Below are positions 1 through 38,030 of a DNA stretch of 38,030 nucleotides, piece by piece. Source of the stretch: a virus; the UHGV virus genome UHGV-0362136; one strand, given 5' to 3'. A program made the translations under genes and the position numbers. Position 1 is the stretch's first letter; every line of letters starts with the position of its first letter. The notes beneath the pieces are model-generated. The model had not been told where the DNA came from. It did not search any database and was given only the letters and a program-made list of their open reading frames with translations.

Positions 1-745
1 CCGCGCCGGGGGCATCGATGACGTCGGGGTAGTAGGTGGTTTCCCATCCGGCGCGGTCCTTGTGGGCCTGAGTGATGCCGCCGATGGGTGATACGCGCAA
101 CCACCGGCGGTCGTAGCGCCCGCGCATCGACATGGCGTAGGCGGGATGAACTGGCAGATCGTGGCGGTGCAGGTAGGCGAACACGTCCACTGCCGTCCAT
201 CGGCCGATGGGGCGGCAGGCGCCCGGCCCAGCCTCACCCCAGCGACCCATTGCCATCGCCCTCATGCGGGACTCCTCGGCGCGAACCCCAGAGATATGCC
301 GCGAGCCGTGGTGGACCTCAGCCTCATGGAACTGCCCCCCGACATGAGAGGCGGTCCGCTTGGCGTCTGCCAGGTCATCGATCTGCCACCATCGAGGCCC
401 CGGGGAAACCCAGTACTCGTGGTAGTCGACATAATCTCCCCACCGTTCGAGGAACGCGTCGCGCACTGTGAGGCAGTCGGGGTTCTCGTAGCGGCGCATA
501 CGCACGTAGACCAGCGGCAGCACGAGCCCGCTAGTGGCTGCCAGGTGGGCGACGACGGTGGAGTCCTTGCCCCAGGAGGTCGAGACGTAGCAGGGTCCGG
601 AGCCAGCGAAGTCGGTGATGACACCCTTGGCGCGGGCCTCGCGGCGCGGCCACGACGGGTTTTGCGCCAACCGGGCGTCGTAGCGTTCGATGCTGCGCCA
701 GTGGTCGAGGTCGCCGGGCTTGAAGCGGGGTGATGGGATCAGCAC
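1..745 (-). CDS. CysH-like phosphoadenosine-phosphosulfate (PAPS) reductase family protein; N-terminal about 248 aa in window, 3' end runs off the left edge
   Basis: Translating the minus strand from a GTG at 745 (GGAGG 7 nt upstream, overlapping the stop of the upstream ORF) gives an open frame to position 1. It contains a PP-loop-like motif CYVSTSWGKDSTVVAHL (variant of SGGKDS) typical of PAPS reductase/DndC-like ATP pyrophosphatases. It is not in the ORF track because no stop lies inside the window. Confidence 0.55.
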   Translation of the reverse strand, partial: MLIPSPRFKPGDLDHWRSIERYDARLAQNPSWPRREARAKGVITDFAGSGPCYVSTSWGKDSTVVAHLAATSGLVLPLVYVRMRRYENPDCLTVRDAFLERWGDYVDYHEYWVSPGPRWWQIDDLADAKRTASHVGGQFHEAEVHHGSRHISGVRAEESRMRAMAMGRWGEAGPGACRPIGRWTAVDVFAYLHRHDLPVHPAYAMSMRGRYDRRWLRVSPIGGITQAHKDRAGWETTYYPDVIDAPGA

Positions 746-963
746 AGCTTGACCTCCGGAGGGGTGGCGGCCTTGTGCCAGCCGGTAGAGCGGGGGCCGT
801 CCCATGCGGCGTATCCGCCTCGGCGCAGCCGCACCAGGGACTCTCGGATTCGCTGGACCGGCGCGTCGAGGGCGTTGGCGCAGGCGGTGTCGGTGGCGCG
901 GCGGTGGCGGTTGGGGCGGGCTGGCAGCCAGCGCCATACCGCCAGGTCGGTCTCGGTCAGCAT
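739..963 (-). CDS. small basic protein (74 aa), possibly winged-helix DNA/RNA binding; part of the csf-like operon
   Basis: ORF track 739..963. ATG overlaps the upstream stop (ATGCTGA) and its stop overlaps the downstream GTG start. Sequence ...ALDAPVQRIRESLVRLRRGGY... is helix-turn-helix-like. Confidence 0.3.
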   Translation of the reverse strand: MLTETDLAVWRWLPARPNRHRRATDTACANALDAPVQRIRESLVRLRRGGYAAWDGPRSTGWHKAATPPEVKLC

Positions 964-1538
964 GATGTTCTCCTCGTGTAGTGCCAGTAGGGGGCGCGGG
1001 CGGCCTCCTGTGGCGGGAATGGGCGGTCATCCCAGCCGCCGTCGCGGTGCTCGATGGTCCATGCGGTGACGTGCCCGTGTCCGGCGTTGTGGCGGGCGCC
1101 GATATGGGTTACCAGGCGCAGCAGGTCGGCCAGGTCGTCGACGTCGGTGACCTCGGCGTCCCACCAGATCTGGTCTGTAATGGCGGCGGAGCGGATGACG
1201 TTGCGGGCCTTGCGGGGGCCGAGGCCGAGGTGGACCTTCGCGTCGTGGGTAAGGAACGTCATCGCTTGAGTGGCGGGCTTGCGGCGAATGTCGGTTGAGG
1301 TGTGGAGGGGCTCGGCGTAGTGGGCGCAGGAGACCTGCCAACCCCAGGTGCCGCCCAGCTCCCACCGCCTCAGCGGCAGCGGGAAGTCGGGCGCATGGGT
1401 GGGGGTGATCGGCTCGATGGGCTGCCCGTGGGCGCGGGCGCGCATGGCCCACGCCCACGACAGTGGCCCATCTAGCATGGTGGGGTGCTCCTCCAGCCCC
1501 ACCACGGAGGTGTCGAGATGGGCGGTGATCCTCACGCC
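957..1538 (-). CDS. small RAMP protein, Csf3/Cas5-like candidate
   Basis: In-frame GTG start at 1538 overlaps the stop of the upstream gene (GTGA), with GAGGTG upstream. The C-terminal glycine-rich loop THIGARHNAGHGHV resembles the GxxxxxGxG loop of Cas5/Cas6 RAMPs. The first 34 aa of the ORF-track product are overlap junk. Confidence 0.35.
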   Translation of the reverse strand, partial: GVRITAHLDTSVVGLEEHPTMLDGPLSWAWAMRARAHGQPIEPITPTHAPDFPLPLRRWELGGTWGWQVSCAHYAEPLHTSTDIRRKPATQAMTFLTHDAKVHLGLGPRKARNVIRSAAITDQIWWDAEVTDVDDLADLLRLVTHIGARHNAGHGHVTAWTIEHRDGGWDDRPFPPQEAARAPYWHYTRRTSC

Positions 1539-2413
1539 GACACCTCTGCGATCAGGGCGGTGATGGCCTCGGCGTTGTCCCGGGTGTGACTGGTGAGCCA
1601 GTCGATGGCCTCGGCCTGCCCGGTAGTGTCGGTGAGCCACTCAATATCGGCGGCCCCGTAGCCGGTGGCGGTGGAGGCTCCCAGCCTCACGTGGCCGTTG
1701 GGTGCCCACAGGCCGAGGGTGGCCAGCAGTACCCGCCGATGGGTGTCGGTGGCGGCCGGGGTGAGGGTGATGGATCCGGCGAGCATGGCCCCCGAGACGA
1801 GCACCTGGGTGTCGTAGATCATCTGCGTGGTGGTGACCGCCGGGGCATCGAGGGTGTCGGGCGAGGCGATCATGCGGGCCGCCATCGTGGATGCAGTGTC
1901 GTGGCGTGTGCCGAACTCCTCCCCGCGGTAGGCGGCAGCCCGCTTGGGGCGCAGGGCCGCCGTGTCGGGGTCGAGGCGCCACCCGTTTTCGGCGCACACG
2001 AGGATCGCATCAGAGACGCGCAGGGTGCCCTCGTGGATGTCGGAGCGGGCGGCGTATCCCATCATCGACAGGCCAGGCAGTAGCTCGTCGACGCGGCGCT
2101 GCATGTCCAGGTCGACCTGGGCGCCGGTGGAGGTGACCGCCCCGCCTGACCACAGCAGGTCGACGCCGGCCTTGGTGAGCGCGCCGTCCAGGTGGAGGGT
2201 GTCGGCCATGTGCCAGGCCAGCGCGTCGCGCAGGCCGTGGCGGATGGATCCCGCCGACAGGAACGGCACTCGGGCCGCTGTTCCGTCAGGCAGGACGACG
2301 TCCTGGGTGCGCAATAGGCGGGTATTGCCGGCGTTGCCTGCACCGTGGGCGAAGGGTGCGGTCAGGGTGGCGCGGTAGCGGTAGAGCGGTGCGGTGGTGG
2401 TGATGGTGGTCAT
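1532..2413 (-). CDS. Cas7-family RAMP (Csf2-like backbone subunit)
   Basis: ATG at 2413 shares one nucleotide with the preceding stop (TGATG). N-terminal motif LTAPFAHGAGN matches the RAMP motif (L.TPLHIG.G). VPFLSAGSIRHGLRDAL matches the RAMP signature (IPGSSLKGALR). C-terminal LGASTATGYGAADI matches the G-rich loop (LGG....GFG). There is also an internal LLWSGGAVTSTG motif. Confidence 0.55.
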   Translation of the reverse strand: MTTITTTAPLYRYRATLTAPFAHGAGNAGNTRLLRTQDVVLPDGTAARVPFLSAGSIRHGLRDALAWHMADTLHLDGALTKAGVDLLWSGGAVTSTGAQVDLDMQRRVDELLPGLSMMGYAARSDIHEGTLRVSDAILVCAENGWRLDPDTAALRPKRAAAYRGEEFGTRHDTASTMAARMIASPDTLDAPAVTTTQMIYDTQVLVSGAMLAGSITLTPAATDTHRRVLLATLGLWAPNGHVRLGASTATGYGAADIEWLTDTTGQAEAIDWLTSHTRDNAEAITALIAEVSA

Positions 2414-2808
2414 CAGAACGGGATCTCCTCGGTAGCAGCGGACTTCTTCGGTGCGGTCTTTTTCTTGGTGGTCTTGCGCTCGTCGCGTTCTGCCAGCGCC
2501 ATCGCGGCGATGTAGGTGACGTTGTGGGCGACATGTGAGGCCCACGCCTGGTAGTCGGCGTCAATGACGTTCGCGACCTTGACGGCCGCTTTGGCGTGGG
2601 AGGGGTGGATGGCCGGGATTTGGAGTTTGTGGCAGCAAGTGGTGATCGCCTGCCCGGCGTCCTGCGATCCGGCAGCGGCGGTTTCCAGGGCCGTGTTGAT
2701 CCGACCGGACCAGAACTCCAGCGGCCCGAGGTCGGCCAGGGAGCCGCGCAGCGCGAAGATCAGATCAATCGTGGCGGCGTCGAGTTCTTCTGGTGCGGGC
2801 GTGGTCAT
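2413..2808 (-). CDS. Cas11-like small subunit candidate (131 aa), with SSB-C-terminus-like tail EEIPF
   Basis: ATG at 2808 overlaps the csf1-like stop. It is a small predicted alpha-helical protein lying between the Csf1-like and Cas7-like genes, as in type IV-B loci. The C-terminus KKKTAPKKSAATEEIPF resembles the SSB C-terminal tip (the phage SSB here ends AEAPF). Confidence 0.35.
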   Translation of the reverse strand: MTTPAPEELDAATIDLIFALRGSLADLGPLEFWSGRINTALETAAAGSQDAGQAITTCCHKLQIPAIHPSHAKAAVKVANVIDADYQAWASHVAHNVTYIAAMALAERDERKTTKKKTAPKKSAATEEIPF

Positions 2809-3530
2809 TGCATTGTTCCTTTCGTGATGGTCCACAGTGCGAGGTCGAGCAGGGGAGAGCGGTGCCAGTTGGCAATCTGGGCGTCGAGGTCCCGCCAGTG
2901 CAGCAGGTCGGCGCGGGTGCGCACGTAGTCAGGTCGGCCCTCCCGAACGCCCTCGGCGGGGACGCCCATGCGCCGCAACTCCAGGGCGATGGCGTGGACA
3001 TGCCTCCACTGCTCGGGGGTGGCGGAGACCTGGGTGTCCTCCATGCGGATCGTCCAGGCACCGTCGCCGTGATTGAGGGGGGTGTAGGGGACGACGTGCT
3101 TCTGGCCGGAGATGGCCACGGACGCCACCCAATCACCAGCTGGTGGGCTGGCGAGCAGCTCCACCAGTGGAGCTGGGTTGGCTCGATTGAGCAGCGACAG
3201 TCCGGGGGTGTCCTGCAGCCATGCCTTCTCGTGGGTACGACAAGGGGCGTCCGGCTCCCCGGCCACGATCGTCCACATGCGCAGGGTTGCCGGTGGCTTG
3301 CCGGAGCAACACCACAGGCAGGCGGTACACACCCGCGAGGTGGGAGCCACGCACAGCGACCTATCGGTGAAGTTCTTGCCCAGGGCGCGGTCGAAGTCTG
3401 CGGTCACCTCCTCGTGGTGGCCGCAGATCGCACACACTCCCGGTTCATCGGTCAGGTGCTTGGCGGTCGAGGCGACGGTGATCTCAGGGGATCCGGCTCG
3501 GGCGTAGATGAGTCTGGTGGCCTCACTCAC
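2805..3530 (-). CDS. Csf1-like (Cas8-like) large subunit candidate with N-terminal zinc finger
   Basis: 241 aa with a Cys cluster CAICGHHEE...(23 aa)...C...CTACLWCC in the N-terminal third. Its position directly upstream of the cas11-like/cas7-like/cas5-like genes matches type IV csf1. Start overlaps the upstream stop by 4 nt. Confidence 0.4.
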   Translation of the reverse strand: MSEATRLIYARAGSPEITVASTAKHLTDEPGVCAICGHHEEVTADFDRALGKNFTDRSLCVAPTSRVCTACLWCCSGKPPATLRMWTIVAGEPDAPCRTHEKAWLQDTPGLSLLNRANPAPLVELLASPPAGDWVASVAISGQKHVVPYTPLNHGDGAWTIRMEDTQVSATPEQWRHVHAIALELRRMGVPAEGVREGRPDYVRTRADLLHWRDLDAQIANWHRSPLLDLALWTITKGTMQ

Positions 3531-4078
3531 AGCAGACCCTCCATGATCGTTAGACCACAGCCGTAGGCCTTACCGGTGCCGATCCCGGCCAGACGCAGGC
3601 CGTCGAGCGCTCCGGCGTCGGTCACAGTCCCCGTGGCGATCGCCGTGCACTGCTTCACCGTCGCCGTCGTGCCGGGCTTGTAGGCGCGAGCCACGCGCAG
3701 TAGATCGACCGTGCAGGAGTCCACATCGACCGCCCCGGCGAGCTTCCGGGCGTACCAGTCAGACCACCGATCGGAGGGCAGCGGGCGGCGCTTCCCTCTC
3801 TTGCCGGCACCGCGGGACACCGAGACGGTGGGGCAGACCACGCTCAGTACGCGCACCGGCTCCCCGGCTCCGATATCAGGCAGCGGACTGCAGTTCAGCT
3901 CGACCATCCCGACGGGAGGGTGGCCCCGCTCGGCCTGCACGAAGCAGGACCTCCCGATCCACGCCCACAGCACCCGCTCGGCCTCATAGGAGGCGGCGAT
4001 GTCGCGATGCAGGCCTCGGATGTTGCGCCCGGCGGCGTCACAGGAGCGCTCACTCATCTCAAGGGCGTAGAGGTTCAT
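3527..4078 (-). CDS. Cas6-family endoribonuclease candidate (Cas6e-like)
   Basis: C-terminal LAGIGTGKAYGCGLTIMEGLL closely resembles the Cas6e G-rich loop (GIGPAKSMGCGLLSL in E. coli CasE, from memory). N-terminus MNLYALEMS...RNIRGLHRDI parallels CasE MYLSKV...RDLYQLHQGL, including the catalytic-His position. Its ATG overlaps the SSB stop (TGATG). Confidence 0.4.
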   Translation of the reverse strand: MNLYALEMSERSCDAAGRNIRGLHRDIAASYEAERVLWAWIGRSCFVQAERGHPPVGMVELNCSPLPDIGAGEPVRVLSVVCPTVSVSRGAGKRGKRRPLPSDRWSDWYARKLAGAVDVDSCTVDLLRVARAYKPGTTATVKQCTAIATGTVTDAGALDGLRLAGIGTGKAYGCGLTIMEGLL

Positions 4079-4551
4079 CAGAACGGCGCCTCAGCGGACT
4101 GGGCAGCCCACGGGTCTGTGGGTTGCTGGGGCTGCTGGGGCCAGCCGTTGCCCTGGGGCTGAGTCCCGCGCTGGCGTCCGCCGGAGGGCTGGTTGCGAGC
4201 CACCTTGACCGAGGCGAACCTCAGCGCCGGGCCGACCTCAGCCACGTCGATCTCGTAGGAGGTGCGACGGTTGCCGTCGCGGTTCTCGTAGGAGCGAGCC
4301 TTGAGGCTGCCCTGGACGATGACACGCATGCCCTTGGAGAGGGACTCGGCGACATTCTCGGCGTACTGGTGCCACACCGAGCAGTCCAGGAACATCGCCT
4401 CGCCGTCCACCCACTCGTTGCGCTGCTTGTCGAATCGGCGCGGGGTCGATGCCACGGTGAAATTCGCCACCGGGGTTCCGTTGTTCGTGAACCGCAATTC
4501 CGGGTCGGATGCCAGATTGCCAACAACAGTAATGGGAGTTTCTCCACTCAT
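4078..4551 (-). CDS. ssb: single-stranded DNA-binding protein
   Basis: OB-fold SSB sequence [34 protein letters not shown]...[11 protein letters not shown], a Gly/Gln/Pro-rich linker and an acidic C-terminal tip ...SAEAPF. Confidence 0.9.
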
Positions 4552-5015
4552 TTTTTCAGCCTTTCAATATATGCGATTGCGTCAGTTTTTAGGGATTCAT
4601 GGATACGCCGTACATGGGGGATGTCAGCCACGTCCTGCGCGGTCCATCCGGTGGTCTCGCCGATGAGCTGCCATGTCCACTCGCGGGCGCGCATGTAGGC
4701 GACCTGGTCGAGGTCAACAGGTGGCCTGTCGTCCTCGCCGGACTCTGAGGCGATGACCTCCAGGTGGTCAGGATTGGCGCACCGTGGGGTGCTGCAGGTG
4801 CGGCGGAGCTTGCCCGGAGAGGTGACCCACCCATGGGTGGAGGCATGTGCCACGCGGGAGGCGTAGAGGCCCACGGACCCACCGTCGGCAGTGCGGATGT
4901 ACAGCTGTCGGTTCTTGGATATGGCACACCCGTCAGGGGTCCACACCAGGTTTCGGCTGAGTGATTTCGCGGCCTGCATGGGGTCGAGGGACAGTGGATG
5001 CCGAGAGTCAGTCAT
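4548..5015 (-). CDS. HNH endonuclease
   Basis: Start chosen at MTDSRHPL (the ORF-track N-extension overlaps the upstream gene). Motif ...[34 protein letters not shown]...[13 protein letters not shown] is typical of phage HNH nucleases. Confidence 0.6.
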
Positions 5016-5283
5016 GCCAGCGCTCCCTCGTGGACGCCACATTGACCATGGAGGCCAGGAGCCCCGGCTCGCCATGGGTGGCCTCATGCTGTGAGTCGAT
5101 GGCCTCGAGCCAGCGCACTAGGCTGACGATGTTTTGCACGATCGCATCGGCAAGATCAGCCCCACCTCGGTGGTCGTCGTCCAGGAGTTCGTCCGGGAAC
5201 TCCCGGTCCTGCCTGGCCCTCTCCAGTGCGATGAGGGCGAGCGCGTCAGGGTTGATGTGCGACGCGATGTAGTCGTCCATCAT
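5008..5283 (-). CDS. hypothetical acidic protein (91 aa)
   Basis: ORF track. Start and stop overlap its neighbours. No recognisable motif. Confidence 0.4.
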   Translation of the reverse strand: MMDDYIASHINPDALALIALERARQDREFPDELLDDDHRGGADLADAIVQNIVSLVRWLEAIDSQHEATHGEPGLLASMVNVASTRERWHD

Positions 5284-5567
5284 GACTCCACCTCGTCATC
5301 CAGAGGGAGGCCCGCAAACCAGGCGAGCAGGGGGTCTAGCTCACTCGTAAACCGTGCAAAACTGCGGAGGTTCACGCCCTGGGATTGAGATTCCTCGAGG
5401 CTGCTGGCCTGTGCCGACAATTGGAGAATGGTGTCCTTCTTGTCGGTAGGCATGCCAGGATGCAAGCAGAGCCTGTCAAGCTCGTACGACAATTCCCCGA
5501 AATGCTCATATACGGCGAGGCTCGTCATGTATCCGGCCTCGAAAACATCTTTTCGTGTGATGTTCAT
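5280..5567 (-). CDS. hypothetical protein (95 aa), visibly lower GC than neighbours
   Basis: ORF track. Coupled to RecT (stop of RecT at 5564) and to the downstream gene. Confidence 0.4.
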   Translation of the reverse strand: MNITRKDVFEAGYMTSLAVYEHFGELSYELDRLCLHPGMPTDKKDTILQLSAQASSLEESQSQGVNLRSFARFTSELDPLLAWFAGLPLDDEVES

Positions 5568-6373
5568 CGGTCCACCTCGCCGGTGTTTTCGTCGATGACC
5601 TCGGCGTCAAACAGCTGCCCCGGCTCCTGTGTCTCGGGCTCGTCAGAGTGAGCCTCGGTCAGTGCGGCGGCGGTGGCGTTGAGCTCGTCCTGGGTGAGGC
5701 CACCGAGGGTTGTCACCTGCCTGCCGAGCACCCGGGAAGCAACCCCGAGGACCTGCTGCTGATCCGCTCCGGTGTCGCGCATGGCTGCGAGGATGATCCC
5801 CCAGTCGGGACGGTCGTCGTGGTGCTCGGTGACGGTCACGCCCTCAGGGCGGGATGGGGCGAAATCGAGCACCTCGTCAGGGGTGTAGCCGACACCACCC
5901 ATCACCTCATAGCACGCCTCCCGTACACACTCGCTCAAGGCGCGGTTGGCGAGCATAAGCTCAGGATTCTTCGCCCAGTGACCTTTCCCCCAGAGGCTGT
6001 GCTTCTCGGCCTTGGCGCGGTCCCAGGTGGCCACGTGCTCAAACTCTGGGTCGTCGGCGCGGATGATGACGCAGCGGGCCACGCCATCGTTGAAGGATTC
6101 GCGCAGCAGGTGACCGGCCTTGCGGATGCGGGTGCGCATGAACTTGGCGGAGAAGGATGGCTTGCCGCCGATGATCGCCATCTCCTGCATGATCGTCCAC
6201 GGGGACTCGCCCAGCTCGGTGGCCTCAGCGAGGGCCACGAGCACGTTGGCTGGCTGGCGCTGGAAGGCGGGCGGGAGGATGGTGGCTGAGCTGAGGGCTT
6301 CGGCATATCTCATTTGGTCGTCGAGGCTGGCTGGGGTGACGTTGGTTGTTGAATGCTCAATTTCTTTGCTCAT
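5564..6373 (-). CDS. recT: RecT-family single-strand annealing recombinase
   Basis: Start at MSKEIEHSTT (GGAGATCATC upstream). Motifs ...PANVLVALAEATELGESPWTIMQEMAIIGGKPSFSAKFMRTRIRKAGH... are RecT-like. Paired with the YqaJ exonuclease upstream. Confidence 0.8.
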   Translation of the reverse strand: MSKEIEHSTTNVTPASLDDQMRYAEALSSATILPPAFQRQPANVLVALAEATELGESPWTIMQEMAIIGGKPSFSAKFMRTRIRKAGHLLRESFNDGVARCVIIRADDPEFEHVATWDRAKAEKHSLWGKGHWAKNPELMLANRALSECVREACYEVMGGVGYTPDEVLDFAPSRPEGVTVTEHHDDRPDWGIILAAMRDTGADQQQVLGVASRVLGRQVTTLGGLTQDELNATAAALTEAHSDEPETQEPGQLFDAEVIDENTGEVDR

Positions 6374-7325
6374 GATGATCTCCTTGGCTGAGGGTGATGA
6401 ATGGGGTTCCGGGTTGTCCGTCGCGCCCCTTGCGGGCTCGACGTGTCGCGAGCGTGGTGCCGTCTGGTGCGACGGCGGTTCGGGCATCGCCCATCACTGG
6501 GGCGAGGATGGCCTTCGCCTGGTCGGTGAACGCCTTCGCCTCGGCGGCGGCATCCTTGGCGGCGGCGTTGAGCTGGGCTGCTTGGCCGATGACCTGGAGG
6601 GCGTCAAGGTCATCGATGGCCACCCGCTCTTCGGTGATATCCGGGTGTCGCAGCCGCTCGAGCGCGTACCTGCGGCCCGCAGGCTCGCGGCTGTCGTCGG
6701 GCTCGACGCCGAGGGCGAGCATGGCGAGGAAACGCTCAGCCTCGTCGAGGGCGTAGCCGATCCACTCGTCGTCGCGCTCGACGTGGAAGCGGCGGAACCC
6801 CCATGTGGAGAGGACGGCGAAATCAGCCCACTCGACGCCGAACACGCTCATATACCACTGCACCTGCGCCCAATAATGTGCGGGCGCACTACCGGTGCCG
6901 TCGCGCCCCCACTCGCTCGAAGTGTTGGGCGTGAACTTGATTTCCAGGACGCCGACCGGATGCCGCACCGAGTGCGGGTTGTCGACGATGAGCCGGTCAG
7001 GGTTGGCCAGCTGCCAATCCCGATCCTGGTGGACCCATGTGCCGGTGTTGCGCAGCCACGTCCCCTCGGGGAGGTGATGGTCGGCGTACCAGCTGGCCGC
7101 TGCTGGCTCGACGTAGTGGCCTGCCTCCATAAGGTCGCTGGAAGGCTTGTCGTCGATGGTGCCGCGCTTGCGGTGCCACAGCTGCCAGGCAGAGCACCAC
7201 GGCGACAGCCCCATGATGGCGGCAATGTCGGAGCCTCCGATGCGGCTTCTGCGAGCCTCCAGCCATTCTGGCGACCCGTCCGGCCATGACCCGAGGGCTA
7301 CTGCTGTCCCTGCGCGTCTCATCGT
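6357..7325 (-). CDS. YqaJ-like viral recombinase-domain exonuclease (lambda Exo-like, PD-(D/E)xK)
   Basis: Start at MRRAGTAV. N-terminal motif RIGGSDIAAIMGLSPWCSAWQLWHRKRG is the hallmark of YqaJ/alkaline exonuclease. Confidence 0.8.
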   Translation of the reverse strand, partial: TMRRAGTAVALGSWPDGSPEWLEARRSRIGGSDIAAIMGLSPWCSAWQLWHRKRGTIDDKPSSDLMEAGHYVEPAAASWYADHHLPEGTWLRNTGTWVHQDRDWQLANPDRLIVDNPHSVRHPVGVLEIKFTPNTSSEWGRDGTGSAPAHYWAQVQWYMSVFGVEWADFAVLSTWGFRRFHVERDDEWIGYALDEAERFLAMLALGVEPDDSREPAGRRYALERLRHPDITEERVAIDDLDALQVIGQAAQLNAAAKDAAAEAKAFTDQAKAILAPVMGDARTAVAPDGTTLATRRARKGRDGQPGTPFITLSQGDHHEQRN

Positions 7326-7501
7326 CGCACCTCGGGGTCGATTCCGTCGCCACCGCAGGTGCGGCACCAGCCGCCCCACTTGCCCTCGCCCGAGCCGTCA
7401 CACTCGGGGCATGGGTACTCGTCGCGTCGTGGCACCCGGCTCACATCGGCGAGCCATTCTCGCTCTGCTCTCGCAATGCTCCGCCCGTCGATGGTGCTCA
7501 T
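7319..7501 (-). CDS. small zinc-ribbon protein with two DnaJ-type CxxCxGxG repeats
   Basis: Start at MSTIDG. CPECDGSG and CRTCGGDG repeats. Confidence 0.45.
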   Translation of the reverse strand: MSTIDGRSIARAEREWLADVSRVPRRDEYPCPECDGSGEGKWGGWCRTCGGDGIDPEVRR

Positions 7502-8325
7502 GCCGACCACCTCGCGGCGAGGTTGTCGATCACGCCTGGATGAGCCGCCATGTGGGTGTCGCACAGGTCGCAGAACGCGGACAACAGCGGGCGGCGCTCG
7601 GCTGCCTGCTCGCCGGTGGCCTCTGGCCAGCCGTCGTCGCTGGCGATGAGGGAGCGCAGCTCAGCGACAGTTCCCGACCAGCAACCGATGGTGACCCTCC
7701 AGCCGTCAGGCGTGGGGATTAGTAGACAGCGGTAGGGGTGGATGCCGTCGATGCACAGGCCGTCCCACAGCCTCCCGTACAGGTTGGCCCCGCGCAGGTC
7801 GACCCCGTACAGGTTGGCCCCGCGCAGGTTGGCCAAGTGCAGGTTGGCTCCGCGCAGGTCGGCCTCGTGTAGGTCGGCCCCGCGCAGGTTGGCCCCGCGC
7901 AGGTCGGTCTCGCCCAGGTCAGCCTTACGCAGATTGGCCTTACGCAGGCCAGCCCAACGCAGGTCGGCCCCGTGCAGGTCGGCCTCGTGCAGGTCGGCCT
8001 CGTACAGGTCGGCCCCGCTCAGGTTGGCCTTACGCAGGTTGGCTCCGCGCAGGTCGGCCTCGTGTAGGTCGGCCCCGCGCAGGTCGGCCTTACGCAGATT
8101 GGCCCCGCGCAGGTTGGCCAAGTGCAGTTTGGCTCCGCGCAGGTCGGCCTGAAGCAGGTCAGCCCAACTCAGATTGGCCCCGTGTAGGTCGGCCCCGCGC
8201 AGGTTGGACCCGTACAGGTCGGCCTTACGCAGGTTGGCCCCACGCAGGTCGGCCTTACGCAGGTTGGGTGTCTCTCCACGGTATCTGGCCTCGCGGATGA
8301 TCTCTAGAACGTCGTCGCGGTTCAT
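7498..8325 (-). CDS. pentapeptide-repeat protein (about 38 A(D/N)LxxA-type repeats) with a unique roughly 85-aa C-terminal domain
   Basis: Translation is almost entirely ADLRGANLRKADLYGSNLRGADLHGANL... repeats. The DNA shows a 15-nt periodic repeat (gcgcaggtYggccYY) across about 7742-8280. Confidence 0.85.
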   Translation of the reverse strand: MNRDDVLEIIREARYRGETPNLRKADLRGANLRKADLYGSNLRGADLHGANLSWADLLQADLRGAKLHLANLRGANLRKADLRGADLHEADLRGANLRKANLSGADLYEADLHEADLHGADLRWAGLRKANLRKADLGETDLRGANLRGADLHEADLRGANLHLANLRGANLYGVDLRGANLYGRLWDGLCIDGIHPYRCLLIPTPDGWRVTIGCWSGTVAELRSLIASDDGWPEATGEQAAERRPLLSAFCDLCDTHMAAHPGVIDNLAARWSA

Positions 8326-8429
8326 TTCTTCTCCATGTCGTCGTGCAGTTTGGTGATGACGATGACGGCTGCCATGGCGATCACGAGGACCAGGCAGCGC
8401 CCGTCGATGGGGATCATGAGTGCAGTCAT
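8322..8429 (-). CDS. small membrane protein (35 aa)
   Basis: MTALMIPIDGRCLVLVIAMAAVIVITKLHDDMEKK has a single hydrophobic helix. Start and stop overlap neighbours. Confidence 0.3.
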   Translation of the reverse strand: MTALMIPIDGRCLVLVIAMAAVIVITKLHDDMEKK

Positions 8430-8632
8430 GACAGCCTCCTGGTGACCGTGTGCTCTCGCATCCATGCGTTGATTGCTGACTGGGCGATGAGATAGCGGGG
8501 CTGCCCCTTGGGGCCAGTCATCTCGATGTGGGTAATCTCGCGCGACGAGCACATCTCGCGGACGGTTCTGGCGCTCTTGCCAAGCTGCTCAGCGGCCTGG
8601 CGCGGCGTAAAAAAGGCCTCTGTGGTGCTCAT
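8426..8632 (-). CDS. helix-turn-helix DNA-binding protein (MerR/excisionase-like HTH_17 type)
   Basis: MSTTEAFFTPRQAAEQLGKSARTVREMCSSREITHIE... is a classic small phage HTH. Confidence 0.5.
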   Translation of the reverse strand: MSTTEAFFTPRQAAEQLGKSARTVREMCSSREITHIEMTGPKGQPRYLIAQSAINAWMREHTVTRRLS

Positions 8633-9414
8633 GCCGCCGCCTCCTCGGAGTCGAAGCGCCCCGACAAGAAGCGATCCACGAAGTACGTCTGCCCCTTGCC
8701 GGTGACCTTTGGCGTTTTTGAGATAGTGACGTGGCCGTCGGAGTGAGTGACTGCGGTTTCCTTGACCTCGAATAACCCCAGTTCCATGGAGCGCTGGGTG
8801 GGCATGTTCCAGGCAGTTCCCTGCTGCTTGACGAGGTATCCGTTGCCGCGCATCCATGCGAAGAGGCGCGTCGCTCCTATCTGGATGCCGTTGCCGCGAA
8901 GAATCTTGGCGAGGTCACCCACGAGGATGGAGGTGCGTGACGCTGCTACCGAGTCAGCGAAGAGGACTTTAGGCTTGTCGGCTTCGTGTTGGGCTTCAAG
9001 CTCGGCGCGGCGGGCGCGTTCCTCCTTGAGGTCGGTGGCGAGTCTGATAATGAAGTCCGGGTCGGTTAAGGCCTTCTCGGCGGCCTCGGGGGTGAGGTAG
9101 CCGCCGTGCTTGCGGATCGAGGGCAGAACCTCGCTGGTGATCCAGCGGCGGAACGCTGCCGCCTCGGGCTTGTCGGATCGGATGACGACTTCGTACATGC
9201 CCGCCTCAGACACGATGGTCATTTCCTGGTCCCCGCCAGGGGTCGTCATCTGAGTACGACCCTTCATGTCACCGGCAAGCCGGGCTGCGACTCGGTGAGG
9301 CTGAGATAGGTTGAGCACCTTGCACAGATCGGCAAGCACGAACCACGGCTCGGCGTTGATGGTGACGACGCGGACGGGCTGGTCCTCGTAGGTGAATGGG
9401 GTAAGCTGAGTCAT
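8629..9414 (-). CDS. phage antirepressor (Bro-N domain + KilA-C/Ant C-terminal domain)
   Basis: Start at MTQLTPFTYEDQPVRVVTINAEPWFVLADLCKVL (Bro-N-like) with AAAGGAAG RBS. The C-terminal ...LFADSVAASRTSILVGDLAKIL...GYLVKQQ... part is antirepressor KilAC-like. Confidence 0.8.
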   Translation of the reverse strand: MTQLTPFTYEDQPVRVVTINAEPWFVLADLCKVLNLSQPHRVAARLAGDMKGRTQMTTPGGDQEMTIVSEAGMYEVVIRSDKPEAAAFRRWITSEVLPSIRKHGGYLTPEAAEKALTDPDFIIRLATDLKEERARRAELEAQHEADKPKVLFADSVAASRTSILVGDLAKILRGNGIQIGATRLFAWMRGNGYLVKQQGTAWNMPTQRSMELGLFEVKETAVTHSDGHVTISKTPKVTGKGQTYFVDRFLSGRFDSEEAAA

Positions 9415-9444
9415 GGAACTTCCTTTCTTGGTTCTTCTGTTTGC

Positions 9445-9470
9445 CGCCCCTGTTGCCTCGGGGGCGGCTT
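9445..9470. other. GC-rich stem-loop between cro-like gene and antirepressor gene
   Basis: GCCGCCCC-tgttgcctc-GGGGCGGC inverted repeat. It is followed by a T-rich run only on the plus strand (tttcttt). Could be an attenuator or an antisense terminator. Confidence 0.3.
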
Positions 9471-9488
9471 TCTTTATGTCTGGCGTGG

Positions 9489-9758
9489 TCATGCTGCCCG
9501 CCCTACTTGTTTTGCACGTTCCGAACTTGCATGCGACGGCATAGAAAAGTCCTCTCCATATGCGAAGGCGTCTTCTATGTCGATGTCGAGCTTCCGGCAC
9601 ATCGTCAGCGCGAGACGTTCGGAGCATGTGGCCGCTCCCCCCGTCTCAACGAGCGACACGAACTGCTGTGTGCATCCGGTGATCGCGGCTAGGTCCGACT
9701 GAGACAGTGAGCGTCGACGGCGCGCTCTGGCGATAGCGCCAGGGTTAATGATCCGCAT
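9489..9758 (-). CDS. XRE-family HTH regulator (Cro-like, 89 aa)
   Basis: Start at MRIINPGAIARARRRRSLSQSDLAAITGCTQQFVSLVETG (AGGGAGG RBS). The ORF-track N-extension is not credible. Transcribed divergently from the repressor-like gene. Confidence 0.7.
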   Translation of the reverse strand: MRIINPGAIARARRRRSLSQSDLAAITGCTQQFVSLVETGGAATCSERLALTMCRKLDIDIEDAFAYGEDFSMPSHASSERAKQVGRAA

Positions 9759-9818
9759 CCATGAGCCTCCCTTTCGTTGCGGTCTGGCTGCATGTCCTAT
9801 TCTGCAAGCTCCGCGCTT

Positions 9819-9962
9819 GGAATACAAGTTCCTCATGTCCCTAGACCATAGTGGTTGTGGCTTGTACAAGCAAGCTAGACGCTTGTATTGCCTAGTCGCG
9901 CCGCGTGTCGTGATGCCCGTAAAGCTTCTTGGTTGTACAAGCGATACGCTTGTGACATGTAC
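9819..9962. promoter_or_regulatory. operator cluster in the divergent regulatory region: perfect 12-bp palindrome GCTTGTACAAGC (9860-9871) plus related copies
   Basis: Related sites are GTTGTACAAGC (9932-9942), GCTTGTAttg (9881-9890), GCTTGTgACATGTAC (9948-9962) and GGAATACAAGTTCC (about 9825-9841). All lie between the Cro-like start (9758) and the repressor-like start (9985). Confidence 0.5.
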
Positions 9963-9984
9963 GCCATGACACAAGGGGCCAATC

Positions 9985-10473
9985 ATGGATGACGTGACAG
10001 CGCTCCAGCGTCTCATCGCAAACCGGCAACGGGACCTCAACGCCCCGAGCCTCATCGCGATGTACCGTGCGGCAAACCTGCCCAGGGGTGCCATCACATA
10101 CGAGACCCTGCGTCGTATGGCGACAGGGCGGCAGCGGTCCATTCGTGGGGATCAAACCTATGAGGACCTGTCGACCATCCTCCGGGTGAGCGTTGATGAC
10201 GTGAAATCGGCAGAGGCCGGGTACACGCCCATCGGGGGATGGGAGCGGTACGAGCGGCTCAACGCCGAGGAAAGGAAGGCTGTCGAGGGCGTCATGGACG
10301 CCATACTCGCGGCACGGGAAGCAGGAGGTAGCAGTGATGACCGGCAATCTGAGGCTCAGAAGAGCCCGCTAGAGGCGTCGGGGAGCGAGGAAGCCACCCT
10401 CGCCGCCGACAACCCCGGCACGCCGACCGACCGCGAGCGCATGGAAGCAGAGTGGGGCGATGAACCCGCCTAA
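9985..10473 (+). CDS. repressor-like DNA-binding protein (ImmR-like partner of ImmA)
   Basis: AAGGGG RBS before the ATG. Has a degenerate HTH and an acidic C-terminus. Overlaps and precedes the ImmA/IrrE metallopeptidase gene, as in ImmR-ImmA modules. Confidence 0.45.
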   Translation: MDDVTALQRLIANRQRDLNAPSLIAMYRAANLPRGAITYETLRRMATGRQRSIRGDQTYEDLSTILRVSVDDVKSAEAGYTPIGGWERYERLNAEERKAVEGVMDAILAAREAGGSSDDRQSEAQKSPLEASGSEEATLAADNPGTPTDRERMEAEWGDEPA

Positions 10474-10861
10474 CCCGTGGGCATGGCTGCGCTCGCGGCC
10501 ATCCATTGACCTCGTGTGGGGTGGGCTGCCGGTCGGATGGCGTGGAGCCACGGACGGAAGCACCATCTGGATAGCCGAGAGGCTCACCCAGCGGGAGCGA
10601 CGATCCACCCTCGCGCACGAGATCACACACATCGAGCTAGGGCTCCTCGGGCCACAGTCACCCGTCTGTGAGGAGCGTGTCAGGGTCGCCACGGCACGGT
10701 GGCTGCTGCCAGACCTGGACGCGATAGCGGACGCCCTGGCTGACTCGACACCCGAGGATGCCGCCACAGACCTGTGGGTAGCAGACGATATCCTCGCCAC
10801 GCGACTAGCACACCTCACCGCCGGTGAGCGTGACCACATCAGCCGCACAGCAGAGATATAG
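10460..10861 (+). CDS. ImmA/IrrE-family zinc metallopeptidase (anti-repressor protease)
   Basis: HEXXH motif in STLAHEITHIELGLLGP with the typical size and context (COG2856-like). Confidence 0.7.
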   Translation: MNPPNPWAWLRSRPSIDLVWGGLPVGWRGATDGSTIWIAERLTQRERRSTLAHEITHIELGLLGPQSPVCEERVRVATARWLLPDLDAIADALADSTPEDAATDLWVADDILATRLAHLTAGERDHISRTAEI

Positions 10862-12296: not shown

Positions 12297-12341
12297 GGGC
12301 CACTTTGACGGCGTTATGCCTAGTCAAGTGGCCTTTTTTCA
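12297..12341 (+). terminator. rho-independent terminator-like hairpin + T6 downstream of int/att core
   Basis: GGGCACTTTGAC-loop-GTCAAGTGGCC (about 11 bp stem with one bulge and one mismatch) followed by TTTTTTC. Confidence 0.4.
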
Positions 12342-12684
12342 TGCCTTCTCATGTGATACGCAGTGGCATCGAGTGCCCCTGAGTGCCTCCATGTGTCCGT
12401 ACCGGGTACGGCGCTGACTAGGGGTCGAGCATGTGGGGGTCGGGATGATCTGTACCCAGACTGTACCGGCGGCTGTACCTCGAGCCAGCACGGGGCCATC
12501 ATGGTTGCAGCCGATGAAACGCGATGAAACTCCTAGTCGCAACTATATCGCTCATCCATGTTGAGCGATTCTGATAACTCGGTTGCGCATGGTGTCATGG
12601 GGTGCCATTATTAATGGTGTCAGCAAGAAAGACCCCCGCGAGGTGGCAGCCTCCGGGGGTATGGACAGAGAAAGGACCTCTGAC

Positions 12685-13543: not shown

Positions 13544-14512
13544 ATGAGCCGCAAACCACGGTGGGGTGCGTTGGCGTGGCCTGGTATTTGCCGGGCTACC
13601 GCCTCAGCGCTGACCGACGAGTCACGGCGGCTGGGCGGTCTGGCGATGCGCGCCGAGTCGATGGGGGCTATCGGCCCCCGCGACGAGCTGGGGGCTGAGG
13701 CGGTGGCCTGCCGCGACTATGCGGGGATCCTGGCCTCCGGTGAGCGCATCTGGGTATCAGCTGACATGGTGGCGGCTACCACTGATGCCGCCGCCGACGT
13801 GCCCAGCCTCGACACGATCGACATGCCTGAGGCGCGCGGGTGCCTCGGCCTGGCCACGCCTCTCCCCCCAGTCGGCCTGGGGCATCCCCTGTGGCTGCGC
13901 ACACCGGAGGGAGGGACGAGAGAGCATACCGAGCCGATATCGGTTGATGCGCTGGCGTGGACGACCGTCGGGACATCGGTGCGAGTGGTGCTCATGACGC
14001 GCACACATCGCCTGCCAGCCCCTCTGCATGGCACCGACTCGCCACTGAGCGTGGTCGAGTCCATGACAGTTCCCGCCCGGATGGATTTCGACGGCATGGA
14101 GGCGCGGCAGGTGCAACCAGGCGGAGCCATGGACCAACTACCGCACGACCGGGTGCGCCCGATGCTGCGGGTGGCATCCTGGCTGAGCGCGGCATGGGTG
14201 CTCATGGCGACCCCGACGGTGTCGGAGCCGCACCCCATGGATGGCCGGTGGGGAGGCCCAGCAACAGGGCAGACCCGTCCACGTGATCGGGTGACCGTCG
14301 TCGACATGCGACCCATGAGGCAGGTGCACACCACCACCGACCCCACTGGCAGGCGGTTGACGACCCGCCACGTCGTGCGAGGACACTGGACACACCAGCC
14401 CTACGGCCCGGCCCGCAGCCTCCGACGCCTCCAATGGGTCGCCCCATTCATCCGAGGCCCCGAGGGGGCACCGTTTGTCGGCACCGACACCGTGCGAGTG
14501 TGGCGACGCTAG
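13544..14512 (+). CDS. hypothetical protein (322 aa)
   Basis: ORF track. Closely follows the previous gene (4 nt). Ends just before the bidirectional terminator. Confidence 0.45.
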   Translation: MSRKPRWGALAWPGICRATASALTDESRRLGGLAMRAESMGAIGPRDELGAEAVACRDYAGILASGERIWVSADMVAATTDAAADVPSLDTIDMPEARGCLGLATPLPPVGLGHPLWLRTPEGGTREHTEPISVDALAWTTVGTSVRVVLMTRTHRLPAPLHGTDSPLSVVESMTVPARMDFDGMEARQVQPGGAMDQLPHDRVRPMLRVASWLSAAWVLMATPTVSEPHPMDGRWGGPATGQTRPRDRVTVVDMRPMRQVHTTTDPTGRRLTTRHVVRGHWTHQPYGPARSLRRLQWVAPFIRGPEGAPFVGTDTVRVWRR

Positions 14513-14569: not shown

Positions 14570-14965
14570 TTACTCCTGCGCATGGCGGAGCGCAGGAGCA
14601 GAGTCGGGCTCGCCATCGGCTGGGGGAGCGTCGTCGTTGATGGGCTCGATCATGCCGGGGTCATCGTCGGGGATATCCAGGGCGGGCTCGGCGGGAGGCT
14701 CAATGAGCTCCACGTCCTCGCCTGCGAGAGCCGGGGCCTCGGGGTGATTGCCAGCGACAAATGTCGGCGACCCCAGCGACGTGGCGACCGACAGGATGGC
14801 CGCAACCCCAGCCGTAATCAGCGCAGACAACCACGGCAGGCCGCGAACACTATCTACCGTGTACACGACACCTGCACCGACCCCAAGCGTAGCAACAAAC
14901 GTTTGCACAAACGTTTTCACAGCCCGCTCGAAACAGCCACGCCAAAAATACTTGTCCATGCTCAC
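14570..14965 (-). CDS. holin (two predicted TM helices, Pro/Asp/Glu-rich C-terminus)
   Basis: Immediately downstream of the endolysin with overlapping stop/start. Hydrophobic segments TFVQTFVATLGVGAGVVYTV and LSALITAGVAAILSVATSLG. Resembles the Cutibacterium-phage holin arrangement. Confidence 0.65.
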   Translation of the reverse strand: MSMDKYFWRGCFERAVKTFVQTFVATLGVGAGVVYTVDSVRGLPWLSALITAGVAAILSVATSLGSPTFVAGNHPEAPALAGEDVELIEPPAEPALDIPDDDPGMIEPINDDAPPADGEPDSAPALRHAQE

Positions 14966-15810: not shown

Positions 15811-15951
15811 GTCATGTCTCCTCGTCGTGTGTGTGATGCATTCGCCGTAGTCCCATCCTCAGCAGGTCAGGTGTCCGGTGGTCATGTCGGGTTCGTGGAC
15901 TGCTGGGCACAGATGGTGCAAATGGTGCGCTCGTCATGTACCATTAGTTCT

Positions 15952-28816: not shown

Positions 28817-29220
28817 GAGGTGTCCCCCCAGCCGCGATACAGGTCCGTGGTGGGGCTGTAGGCGTGAGGCTGATCCACCTCGATGAGGGCGAACCCTCCC
28901 CGGTGGGTGTCGGCCCAGATGCGGGAGCGGCGTCGCCATGCGGCGGCGGTGGTGCCCCAGTCCTTGGGGGTGACGATCATGGTGGTGCCCTCGGAGGTGA
29001 CGTGGGTGAGCTGGTCGCCTACCAGGGATGCCGCCAGTGTTGCCGCCTCGGCGGCAGCCCACCACTGGTCGTAGGTGGGCTGCCAGTCGGGGTCGCCGGG
29101 TAGGCGTCCATGGTCGTCTGGGATGGCTGAGCTGTCGACGCACTCGGCTATCTGGGAGGAGTCAAGCGCGTCGCCGCCGAGGAGCTCGCTCACGTGCAGG
29201 ATCGCGCTGCTTCTGTCCAC
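28807..29220 (-). CDS. head-tail adaptor/connector candidate
   Basis: GTG start with GGAAGGAG 7 nt upstream (the track start is a TTG further up). Position after the capsid gene. Confidence 0.4.
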   Translation of the reverse strand: MDRSSAILHVSELLGGDALDSSQIAECVDSSAIPDDHGRLPGDPDWQPTYDQWWAAAEAATLAASLVGDQLTHVTSEGTTMIVTPKDWGTTAAAWRRRSRIWADTHRGGFALIEVDQPHAYSPTTDLYRGWGDTSWT

Positions 29221-38011: not shown

Positions 38012-38030
38012 GCTGCGCCTCCTTGCGCCC

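Follow-up and report, generated by a model that had tools for sequence, protein, structure and literature searches.

Of the CRISPR-Cas subtypes, type IV-B is the one least understood. By definition, it lacks an enzyme for crRNA processing (PMC8175902), in line with what a first-pass annotation of the DNA described here had stated about canonical IV-B systems, and Pinilla-Redondo et al. found only 12 IV-B exceptions with a Cas6 (PMC7038947). The source of the RNA and the role of CysH have been named in reviews as key open questions (PMC8175902). The sole IV-B complex that has been purified carried heterogeneous RNA (PMC7937560), and neutralization of crRNAs has already been proposed for the subtype (PMC7038947, PMC8175902). 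Type IV-A3 systems depend functionally on co-resident host type I-E systems (PMC7038947, PMC11656645).

The window, that is, the whole stretch of DNA analysed, comprises the 38,030 bp of the complete circular genome of a temperate Cutibacterium avidum phage. It is a circular permutation of this genome in which the cysH-like gene crosses the junction; in 7 independent contigs, the sequence runs unbroken across this point. A cas cassette lies within the early recombination/replication operon, preceded by the genes for a RecE-like exonuclease, RecT, an HNH protein and SSB and followed by those for RusA and a replication initiator. The features concerned are as follows.

4078-4551, minus strand: ssb, 157 aa, directly upstream of cas6e (PF00436, E=4.9e-31; NF005851, 223 bits).
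3527-4078, minus strand: cas6e-like gene, 183 aa, first gene of the cassette (PF08798, 30.8 bits; Foldseek TM 0.81; His24 and G-loop).
2805-3530, minus strand: csf1, large subunit, 241 aa (PADLOC Csf1_0_IV, 9.4e-36; weak match to TIGR03114).
2413-2808, minus strand: cas11, small subunit, 131 aa (PADLOC typeIV_Cas11, 3.5e-47).
1532-2413, minus strand: csf2/cas7, backbone subunit, 293 aa (PADLOC typeIV_Cas7, 4e-88).
957-1535, minus strand: csf3/cas5, 192 aa (PADLOC Csf3_0_IV, 2.2e-25; TIGR03116, 3.9e-11; PF27782 on record).
739-963, minus strand: orf74, a small ORF with csf3 on one side and the cysH-like gene on the other, kept in few relatives only and with no family match found.
1-745, minus strand: 5' part of the cysH-like gene, 255 aa in total, PAPS-reductase/PP-loop family (PF01507 on record; PHROG 2302, 1.2e-27).
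38008-38030, minus strand: last 23 bases of the cysH-like gene, including its stop codon, reconstructed across the junction.

The cysH-like product rebuilt across the junction contains an SWGKDS PP-loop motif, and Csf2 matches Csf2 of the Mycobacterium IV-B complex (PDB 7jhy) over nearly its full length (E=1.8e-7). Since Csf1, Cas11, Csf2 and Csf3 stand together with a CysH-like neighbour, the order cas6e-csf1-cas11-csf2-csf3-orf74-cysH-like represents a type IV-B cassette, in keeping with the type IV-like complex of which the first-pass annotation had spoken, and with Cas6e as its first gene, it is a variant of that subtype. The cassette is without an array, adaptation genes, a nuclease or a helicase, and no match to a helicase or to Cas1/Cas2 was found among the phage proteins scanned; this is the gene content expected of IV-B, here flanked by ssb and rusA. 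Type IV-A is marked by a DinG helicase, Csf5/Cas6, its own array and the lack of Cas11, whereas Cas11 is present in the phage and DinG and an array are absent. The operon and array in which a type I-E Cas6e would be found are likewise absent, the neighbours being csf1, cas11, csf2, csf3 and cysH.

Cas6e enzymes cleave repeat hairpins independently of metal and retain the product. As judged from profiles and a predicted structure, the 183-aa product is a genuine Cas6e-family protein of the double-RRM type, in which both the G-rich loop for RNA binding and the position of the catalytic His are kept. It lies above the gathering cut-off of the Pfam family PF08798 (30.8 bits versus 25; E=4.3e-7) and matches the PADLOC Cas6 model over its full length (2.4e-11) as well as the PADLOC Cas6e model (4.3e-10), so that the profile alignment that had been suggested as a check supports the assignment. 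All 45 members of the subfamily are matched by the PADLOC Cas6e models, and the match of the phage protein to the IV-A3 Cas6 model is weak (5.6e-5). Against TIGR01907, the NCBIfam I-E CasE equivalog, it reaches 22.3 bits with the C-terminal 74 residues aligned, below the cut-off (45.2) at which both function and system would be taken as identical. Sequence matches in the PDB are to Cas6e/CasE/Cse3 chains only, and the alignments span the G-loop, which aligns to the E. coli and T. fusca chains. In a Foldseek search with the AF2 model (pLDDT 97.4, pTM 0.90), the top 28 PDB matches were all Cas6e, among them E. coli Cas6e (4tvx_A, E=9.3e-13, TM 0.81), while the type IV-A Cas6 6njy gave a TM of 0.41; the tandem ferredoxin/RRM fold of Cas6e, whose absence had been named as grounds for abandoning the assignment, is thus predicted to be present.

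The protein ends in ...LAGIGTGKAYGCGLTIMEGLL. The first-pass annotation had likened this C-terminus to the Cas6e G-rich loop and the N-terminus to the catalytic-His region of CasE, and both likenesses were borne out: G165, G167, G173 and G175 of the loop are invariant across the 45 sequences, which share 25-55% identity, as are W38 and P83, and His24, located in RNIRGLH, is found in at least 90% of the 45 members. In a profile alignment, this residue falls on the catalytic His of Cas6e, including that of the host Cas6e. The protein sequence is identical on 39 contigs, and its NCBI name is "type I-E ... Cas6/Cse3/CasE"; because phage proteins are labelled in this way, type I-E systems are miscounted in Cutibacterium genomes.

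The gene had initially been regarded as a one-off. Instead, Cas6e is the conserved first gene across a whole clade of variant IV-B cassettes, with the same gene order in about 50 related loci. In viral loci found with Cas6, csf1 is directly downstream in 22 of 23, and csf1-cas11-csf2-csf3 are present in 20 of 23, with a cysH-like gene also in 17, several of the contigs ending within the cassette. Cas6e is directly upstream of csf1 in 32 of the 38 informative viral loci found with Csf2, and the 6 loci without it are the most distant (Csf2 identity, 32-40%). P0157, P0156 and P0038, which are more distantly related members of the family, lie in cassettes of the same order, while the next-lower scorers, P0161 and P0166, belong to ordinary I-E operons; the closest relatives outside the subfamily among the search returns are I-E Cas6e proteins, and the organisms named are actinobacterial. 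The csf1 gene starts with GTG and overlaps the end of cas6e by 4 nt, and in dozens of loci cas6e keeps this place, its stop overlapping the csf1 start. Across the same loci, the Cas6e-like proteins share 27-41% identity and Csf2 shares 45-63%. The GC content of the relatives is 56-73%, and their host taxonomy was assigned from GC alone. A megablast search with the cassette against GenBank phages and a tblastn search with Cas6 against plasmids gave no match, and the sole match in a tblastn search with Csf2 against phages was the distant, Cas6-less Skermania phage SPI1.

The first-pass annotation had also noted that the cas6e ATG shares a nucleotide with the ssb stop codon, which is correct (TGATG, with base 4078 common to both), and had taken this as translational coupling to SSB, which is not. 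The overlap is ordinary operon packing, because all ~20 gene junctions of the gap-free early operon overlap, by 1-17 nt, and ssb is directly upstream of cas6e in only 4 of 32 related loci; on these grounds, SSB coupling as a functional link is ruled out. No minus-strand terminator was predicted over positions 1-10500.

With TRF, a direct-repeat search and a spaced-repeat scan, no CRISPR array or mini-array was detected in the window, which agrees with the earlier reading of this DNA. The repeats detected in the window and in 23 loci were coding repeats in a pentapeptide gene and probable ori iterons only, and a phage array or mini-array is thus ruled out; arrays or I-E repeats were also not found in related loci. 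The host I-E repeat has no match in the phage genome at up to 3 mismatches, and a solitary I-E repeat was rejected, as CCCGC-N3-7-GCGGG has 1 match versus 1.75 expected. Neither Rfam families nor tRNAs were found in the phage, and there is no excess of hairpins (23 versus 20.4 +/- 3.9 in shuffles). An 8-bp hairpin in csf1 (3156-3175) was dismissed as a substrate, its position not being conserved outside the same phage, and the intergenic gaps at 36198-36270 and L078:2211-2432 contain no notable structure (L078 fold, z = -0.3). Across ~50 loci, no conserved hairpin or RNA motif was detected in or near the cassette. Since the phage and its related loci are devoid of a repeat or hairpin substrate, Cas6e would have to take its RNA in trans.

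A candidate substrate is present in the host. In C. avidum ATCC 25577, a type I-E locus contains 28 repeats and encodes a Cas6e of the host's own, and the repeat, GTCTTCCCCGCCTACGCGGGGGTGAGCC, forms a classic Cas6e hairpin (PMC3316620); whether the host has I-E repeats of this kind had been raised as a check, and it does. The candidate substrate RNA is 5'-GUCUUCCCCGCCUACGCGGGGGUGAGCC-3' (plus the next base), in which the hairpin CCCCGC-CUAC-GCGGGG is a canonical Cas6e substrate. Spacers of C. avidum or Cutibacterium sp. match the phage at 9822-9854, 12313-12345 and 28894-28926, at 31-32 of 33 nt, and each of these sites is preceded by AA, corresponding to an AAN-type PAM; ATCC 25577 itself has three matching spacers. 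The host repeat and this targeting of the phage by the host I-E system lend circumstantial support to the link with host crRNAs that the first-pass annotation had suggested, and the targeting bears no more than circumstantially on a putative anti-CRISPR function. The phage Cas6e-like protein and the host Cas6e share 24% identity over 123 aa, which rules out a recent capture of the host's own gene and means that a shared specificity is not readable from sequence.

Given that there is no substrate in cis, that the host I-E repeat forms a suitable hairpin and that PAM-flanked spacers are directed against the phage, we infer that capture of host I-E crRNAs, as a decoy or for hijacking, is the best-supported mechanism. 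The likeliest RNA source would be host type I-E CRISPR transcripts. The phage Cas6e would bind or cut the host repeat hairpin and, once bound, would nucleate the assembly of Csf1, Cas11, Csf2 and Csf3 on host guides, so that during lytic growth guides would be diverted from Cascade-Cas3; nucleic acid bound in this way might be acted on by the CysH-like enzyme of the PP-loop family. In this form, with a nuclease-free Csf complex serving as a Cas-protein-based decoy or "crRNA sponge," the proposal is tentative, and we give it somewhat less than an even chance of being right. CASTs have been reported to use host crRNAs via Cas6-repeat binding (PMC11656645). Several points speak against a decoy. 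In the IV-B complex of Mycobacterium sp. JS623, I-E crRNAs were not enriched despite coexpression of an I-E Cas6 and array (PMC7937560), although the JS623 IV-B system itself is without its own Cas6, and across genomes, IV-B taken as a whole shows a negative correlation with I-E (PMC7038947). Furthermore, the capture of new crRNAs would come too late to disarm Cascade that already carried guides when infection began, and the cassette lies ~5.5 kb into the early operon rather than at its very start. A broader version of the decoy proposal, which we consider unlikely, is that the cassette is a phage Cas-protein-based anti-CRISPR: Cas6e and the nuclease-free IV-B effector would capture I-E (pre-)crRNAs, including the antiphage ones, and starve Cascade-Cas3, and they may also occupy or, through the CysH-like enzyme, chemically mark protospacers on the phage genome itself, which would keep Cas3 from ever being recruited.

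The position of the cassette between recombination and replication genes would suit a role in DNA metabolism equally well. It is conceivable, if somewhat unlikely, that Cas6e recognizes a non-CRISPR structured RNA of the host or the phage, possibly loosely, and that Csf-CysH serves phage nucleic acid metabolism or regulation outside any CRISPR conflict, for example in R-loop formation, priming, PP-loop DNA/RNA modification or control of the early-to-late switch. The placement between RecE/RecT/SSB and RusA/replication initiator and the conservation of the cysH-like gene, counted above in the Cas6-found loci, favour such a role; to our knowledge, however, CRISPR repeats are the only known substrates of Cas6e, the ~50 loci have no conserved hairpin or motif in or near the cassette and no Rfam family was found, and the nearest relatives outside the subfamily among the search returns are I-E enzymes. 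Also in keeping with a non-CRISPR RNA, the RNA on which the JS623 IV-B complex assembles is heterogeneous, regular in length and not of CRISPR origin (PMC7937560), and the occurrence of IV-B is negatively correlated with that of other CRISPR systems (PMC7038947).

Alternatively, captured host I-E crRNAs might be put to use, the loaded Csf complex silencing or blocking spacer-matched competing phages and plasmids in the infected or lysogenic cell. Type IV-A provides a precedent as a nuclease-free, crRNA-guided repression system that uses host I-E functions in trans (PMC11656645, PMC7038947), IV-A3 has recruited a Cas6e-like enzyme from I-E (PMC7038947), and the host has an I-E array while the phage has none. 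We nevertheless regard such guide hijacking as improbable: the cassette is inside the lytic early operon, with no promoter or gap of its own, and not in the position of a lysogeny-expressed moron; IV-B has CysH and no helicase, unlike the IV-A interference machinery; and the host spacers include ones against this phage, so that hijacked guides would also send the complex to its own genome. That the Cas6e-like protein lacks a specific RNA role, being a noncatalytic structural cap or a remnant in decay, as its length (183 aa versus 205-263 aa in I-E Cas6e), its score below the TIGR01907 cut-off and its divergence, faster than that of Csf2, could suggest, is very improbable in view of the conserved His24, the invariant W38, P83 and G-loop glycines, the fixed gene position and csf1 overlap, the fold predicted at very high confidence and the identical sequence on 39 contigs.

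Taken together, an IV-B clade with a dedicated and, by prediction, apparently active Cas6e and no repeat of its own turns the RNA question into an experimental one, as the RNA bound by the phage Cas6e would be a natural guide or ligand of a IV-B complex. The host-phage pair is tractable, because spacers directed against the phage are present in I-E arrays of its host species, and decoy, hijack and non-CRISPR roles are genetically separable. If the cassette were indeed a Cas-protein-based anti-CRISPR, this would give type IV-B its first defined RNA ligand and biological role, and it would answer the puzzle of why the CRISPR inhibitors that viruses have recruited include repeat RNAs but, it appears, no Cas proteins (PMC11656645).

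Compared with the I-E Cas6e proteins of E. coli (4TVX/4DZD), T. thermophilus (2Y8W) and T. fusca (5U07), the phage protein has the same double-RRM fold (TM 0.81) and shares the R-[DN]-x3-L-H motif of helix 1, an [AV]NP[TI] strand, RxPL...W..RKL and the C-terminal G[IV]GxxKxxGCGL loop. It differs from them in being only ~20% identical, shorter and below the equivalog cut-off, and in the loci examined, the phage-type cas6e adjoins csf1 and not cse1, cse2, cas7e, cas5e, cas3, cas1, cas2 or an array. Canonical IV-B, as on the Mycobacterium sp. JS623 megaplasmid (7JHY), shares with the phage cassette csf1, cas11, csf2, csf3 and the cysH-like gene, the lack of an array, adaptation module, nuclease and helicase, and residence on an actinobacterial mobile element; in contrast to the plasmid systems, the cassette described here is phage borne, is located inside an early lytic operon and has its own Cas6e as the first gene. 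A virus-encoded IV-B system with CysH has been described for Fuxivirus, a virus of Bathyarchaeia that is targeted by host spacers and for which counterdefence or inter-element conflict was proposed; in the sections of that report drawn on here, the cassette is described with a two-repeat mini-array and Cas6 is not mentioned among its components (PMC10541130), whereas the present phage has Cas6e and no repeat. Type IV-A3 likewise combines a type IV effector with a Cas6e-like enzyme taken from I-E (PMC7038947, PMC11656645), but it has its own CRISPR array and DinG helicase and is without Cas11 and CysH. Finally, RNA anti-CRISPRs (Racr/solitary repeat units) and CASTs make use of Cas6-repeat binding in trans, either to poison complexes of the host or to borrow its guides (PMC11656645). 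Unlike these, the phage encodes no repeat RNA and instead the protein side of the interaction, Cas6e with a full effector, and by analogy, its cassette would be the mirror image of Racr.

The 183-amino-acid protein encoded directly upstream of csf1 in the Cutibacterium avidum phage is a Cas6e by both family and fold. Its gene and the neighboring ssb gene are located as follows.

3527-4078, minus strand: cas6e, 183 amino acids, C-terminus ...LAGIGTGKAYGCGLTIMEGLL
4078-4551, minus strand: ssb, 157-amino-acid SSB (PF00436, E = 4.9e-31; NF005851, 223 bits)

The protein matches PF08798 (Cse3/CasE family) with 30.8 bits, above the curated Pfam cutoff of 25, and is recognized by the PADLOC models for Cas6 (2.4e-11, full length) and Cas6e (4.3e-10). 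Among PDB sequences, the only noteworthy matches are to Cas6e chains of T. fusca and E. coli, with an alignment spanning the PL...W..RKL segment and the G-loop, and in a full-length profile comparison with the host I-E Cas6e (98.3% probability), the histidines of the two proteins align. An exhaustive HMM search returned 230 cluster representatives with E values of ≤1e-3 (74 of them ≤1e-10), and the homologues among the matches listed are mostly 180 to 200 amino acids long. In an alignment of 45 homologues with 25 to 55% identity to the phage protein, W38, P83, G165, G167, G173, and G175 are invariant, and H24, R35, and W108, among others, are conserved in at least 90% of the sequences. The AlphaFold2 model built from this alignment (pLDDT 97.4, pTM 0.90) matched E. 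coli Cas6e (4tvx_A) in a Foldseek search of the PDB with an E value of 9.3e-13 and a TM score of 0.81; the first 28 matches were all Cas6e, and the Mahella type IV-A Cas6 (6njy) reached a TM score of only 0.41. The first-pass annotation had read this product as Cas6e-like from its G-rich loop and N-terminal histidine region, and both the family and the fold, including the conserved His and the G-loop, are borne out. In several genomes, NCBI labels the protein "type I-E ... Cas6/Cse3/CasE [Cutibacterium avidum]" (e.g., WP_334352966.1, WP_252932226.1, and WP_334338051.1). This is a systematic subtype misassignment, since the protein scores 22.3 bits against the NCBIfam I-E CasE equivalog, under the 45.2-bit cutoff, and the gene is never located in an I-E operon.

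The type IV-like module proposed to accompany cas6e was found directly downstream and consists of Csf1 (PADLOC, 9.4e-36), Cas11 (3.5e-47), Csf2/Cas7 (4e-88; PDB 7jhy, a Mycobacterium IV-B Csf2, E = 1.8e-7), and Csf3/Cas5 (2.2e-25), followed by a 74-amino-acid ORF and a gene for a 255-amino-acid CysH-like protein (PAPS reductase family) with a PP-loop-like SWGKDS motif. The window ends cut through the cysH-like gene, which leaves at the start and is completed at the end. Seven independent contigs contain the 800-nt end-to-start junction (1/38030) uninterrupted, and two contigs from metagenomes measure 38,085 bp, which corresponds to the phage genome plus a 55-nt assembly overlap; the window therefore represents the complete 38,030-bp phage genome in circularly permuted form. 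In genome contigs of C. avidum, the element is also found integrated beside an integrase. One such prophage copy (L004) has an extra gene beside the integrase (2059-3204) for a 381-amino-acid GmrSD_C protein (PF07510), and this site is a variable slot for defense-type cargo. In the phage itself, the accessory region by the integrase contains a 322-amino-acid ORF (13544-14512, plus strand) with a precomputed AcrVA2-like annotation (PF26125). The product of 15742-16587 (plus strand; opposite the lysis/amidase gene, 14962-15810) has a T5orf172/MUG113 (GIY-YIG-like) domain and may be a homing endonuclease or a defense-related moron.

The cassette is embedded in a gap-free minus-strand operon, with genes for Bro/ANT, a pentapeptide-repeat protein, a RecE-like exonuclease, RecT, an HNH-like protein, and SSB upstream and those for RusA, the replication initiator, and, further on, terminase downstream. 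Inside the initiator gene (36729-37628, minus strand; PHROG 2447) are 12/24-nt repeats of the iteron type (37127-37215 and 37397-37460) that include a GCTTAGCG...CGCTAAGC hairpin and probably constitute the origin of the phage; hairpin repeats resembling them are found downstream of cysH in three related loci (L017, L020, and L025). The ssb stop codon and the cas6e ATG have base 4078 in common (TGATG); here, as for the coordinates and the C-terminus, the first-pass annotation was accurate, but its suggestion of a special translational coupling to SSB did not hold. The overlap is ordinary packing, since genes overlap by 1 to 17 nt at every junction of the operon around the cassette and no minus-strand terminator is predicted over 1-10,500. 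Moreover, ssb is directly upstream of cas6e in only 4 of 32 related loci with Cas6e. The coupling is thus incidental; in that interpretation, family, fold, and context are correct.

The cassette is a member of a clade rather than a one-off. A search of IMG/VR based on the Cas6 alignment identified 23 loci; csf1 is directly downstream of cas6e in 22, its start adjoining the cas6 stop, csf1-cas11-csf2-csf3 is present in 20, and the CysH-like gene is also present in 17, several contigs stopping inside the cassette. A Csf2-based scan gave 39 loci, with Cas6e directly upstream of csf1 in 32 of the 38 informative ones, a fraction that is no estimate for IV-B overall because the scan was seeded from the phage's own clade. 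The six loci without Cas6e are the most distant (Csf2 identity of 32 to 40%) and resemble canonical IV-B. All related loci have a GC content of 56 to 73%. Gene order is identical in more distant metagenome family members (P0157, P0156, and P0038), one of which adjoins an FtsK/SpoIIIE gene, suggesting a nonphage element. The next-lower-scoring homologues (P0161 and P0166) are located in standard cse2-cas7e-cas5e-cas6e(-cas1-cas2) operons, and the IV-B-linked Cas6e proteins hence form a distinct, shorter subfamily; their closest relatives outside it, among those the searches returned, are I-E Cas6e proteins, the named organisms being actinobacterial. No match to the phage Cas6e was found among PLSDB plasmids. 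The only IV-B locus in GenBank phages is distant, unannotated, and Cas6-less: Skermania phage SPI1 (L075, KR011061.1, orf40-orf44, all labeled hypothetical) has an IV-B-like cassette with a Csf2 of 27% identity and a CysH-like gene.

As claimed earlier for the window, no repeat array is present, and this extends to the complete phage genome, which also contains no copy of the host I-E repeat (up to 3 mismatches allowed), no excess of I-E-like stems, and no Rfam families or tRNAs. Perfect hairpins are not in excess either (23, versus 20.4 ± 3.9 in dinucleotide shuffles), and there are no arrays within 6 to 10 kb of related loci. An 8-bp hairpin within csf1 was rejected as a substrate, as it is not kept in relatives. 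The IV-B effector, which is nuclease-free and brings no source of guides, has as a fixed, cotranslated component a protein of the Cas6e fold in which the catalytic and RNA-binding motifs are conserved.

The host repeat with a Cas6e-type hairpin that the first-pass idea of crRNA hijacking implies is present in C. avidum: the I-E repeat, GTCTTCCCCGCCTACGCGGGGGTGAGCC (PMC3316620), has a 6-bp GC stem and a tetraloop, the classic form of a Cas6e substrate. The I-E locus of ATCC 25577 comprises 28 repeats and cas genes that include a 221-amino-acid Cas6e, and the 24% identity between the phage and host Cas6e proteins over 123 residues excludes a recent theft. Arrays from ATCC 25577 and two other Cutibacterium genomes were compared with the phage, which has three protospacers.

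9822-9854, minus strand: host I-E spacer match, 31-32/33 nt
12313-12345, minus strand: host I-E spacer match, 31-32/33 nt, two identical spacers
28894-28926, plus strand: host I-E spacer match, 31-32/33 nt

The spacers come from C. avidum ATCC 25577 (L037), for whose array a 2012 paper assigned only 4 of 26 spacers, and a Cutibacterium sp. MAG (L033). AA precedes each protospacer, an AAN-type PAM in keeping with an I-E PAM of the AAG type, and such near-perfect matches with AA in front indicate that the phage is a real target of the host I-E system. The repeats of the pentapeptide-repeat gene in the early operon (7498-8325, minus strand; 275 amino acids, about 31 tandem 15-nt units; a shorter 180-amino-acid allele in another phage copy, L006) partially match two host spacers, and its product could be a DNA-mimic antidefense protein.

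The RNA for Cas6e is presumably supplied in trans. To our knowledge, the only Cas6e ligands are I-E-type repeat hairpins; since these are made by the host and used against the phage, capture of host I-E (pre-)crRNA is favored and, as a general idea, plausible. The Csf complex might then assemble on host guides and act in counterdefense as a decoy or sponge, drawing crRNAs away from Cascade-Cas3, a role that we propose tentatively, at somewhat under an even chance. Cascade loaded beforehand would be unaffected by the capture of new crRNAs, which counts against a decoy. Earlier speculation on crRNA capture by IV-B agrees with the general idea (PMC7038947, PMC8175902), and the Cas6e-bearing cassette gives it a concrete entry point. 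Weighing it down are the Cas6-less JS623 IV-B complex, which loaded no I-E crRNAs (PMC7937560), and the negative correlation between IV-B as a whole and I-E (PMC7038947). The replication and recombination neighbors and the obligatory CysH-like enzyme would suit a role in non-CRISPR RNA or DNA metabolism equally well; we consider such a role less likely than not. Use of host crRNA in competition with other elements seems distinctly improbable; the position of the cassette in a lytic early operon disfavors such lysogen-protecting exclusion, and the decoy role is ranked above it for this reason. That so conserved a Cas6e is a nonfunctional relic is very improbable.

By definition, IV-B has neither a CRISPR array nor an enzyme for crRNA processing (PMC8175902, PMC7937560), and the 2025 classification draws its loci without arrays (PMC12669027). 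Pinilla-Redondo et al. mentioned IV-B with Cas6 as "rare exceptions: only 12 instances," without further analysis (PMC7038947); those 12 loci lie outside our comparison, and we found no literature description of a Cas6e-bearing, array-less IV-B clade or of a phage link. With a host-phage pair for which I-E targeting is documented, it becomes directly testable which RNA is the ligand of IV-B, a question of long standing. By membership, the phage cassette belongs to IV-B but breaks one of its defining features, the absence of Cas6, whereas its proposed working would be most like the IV-A3-style borrowing of I-E parts.
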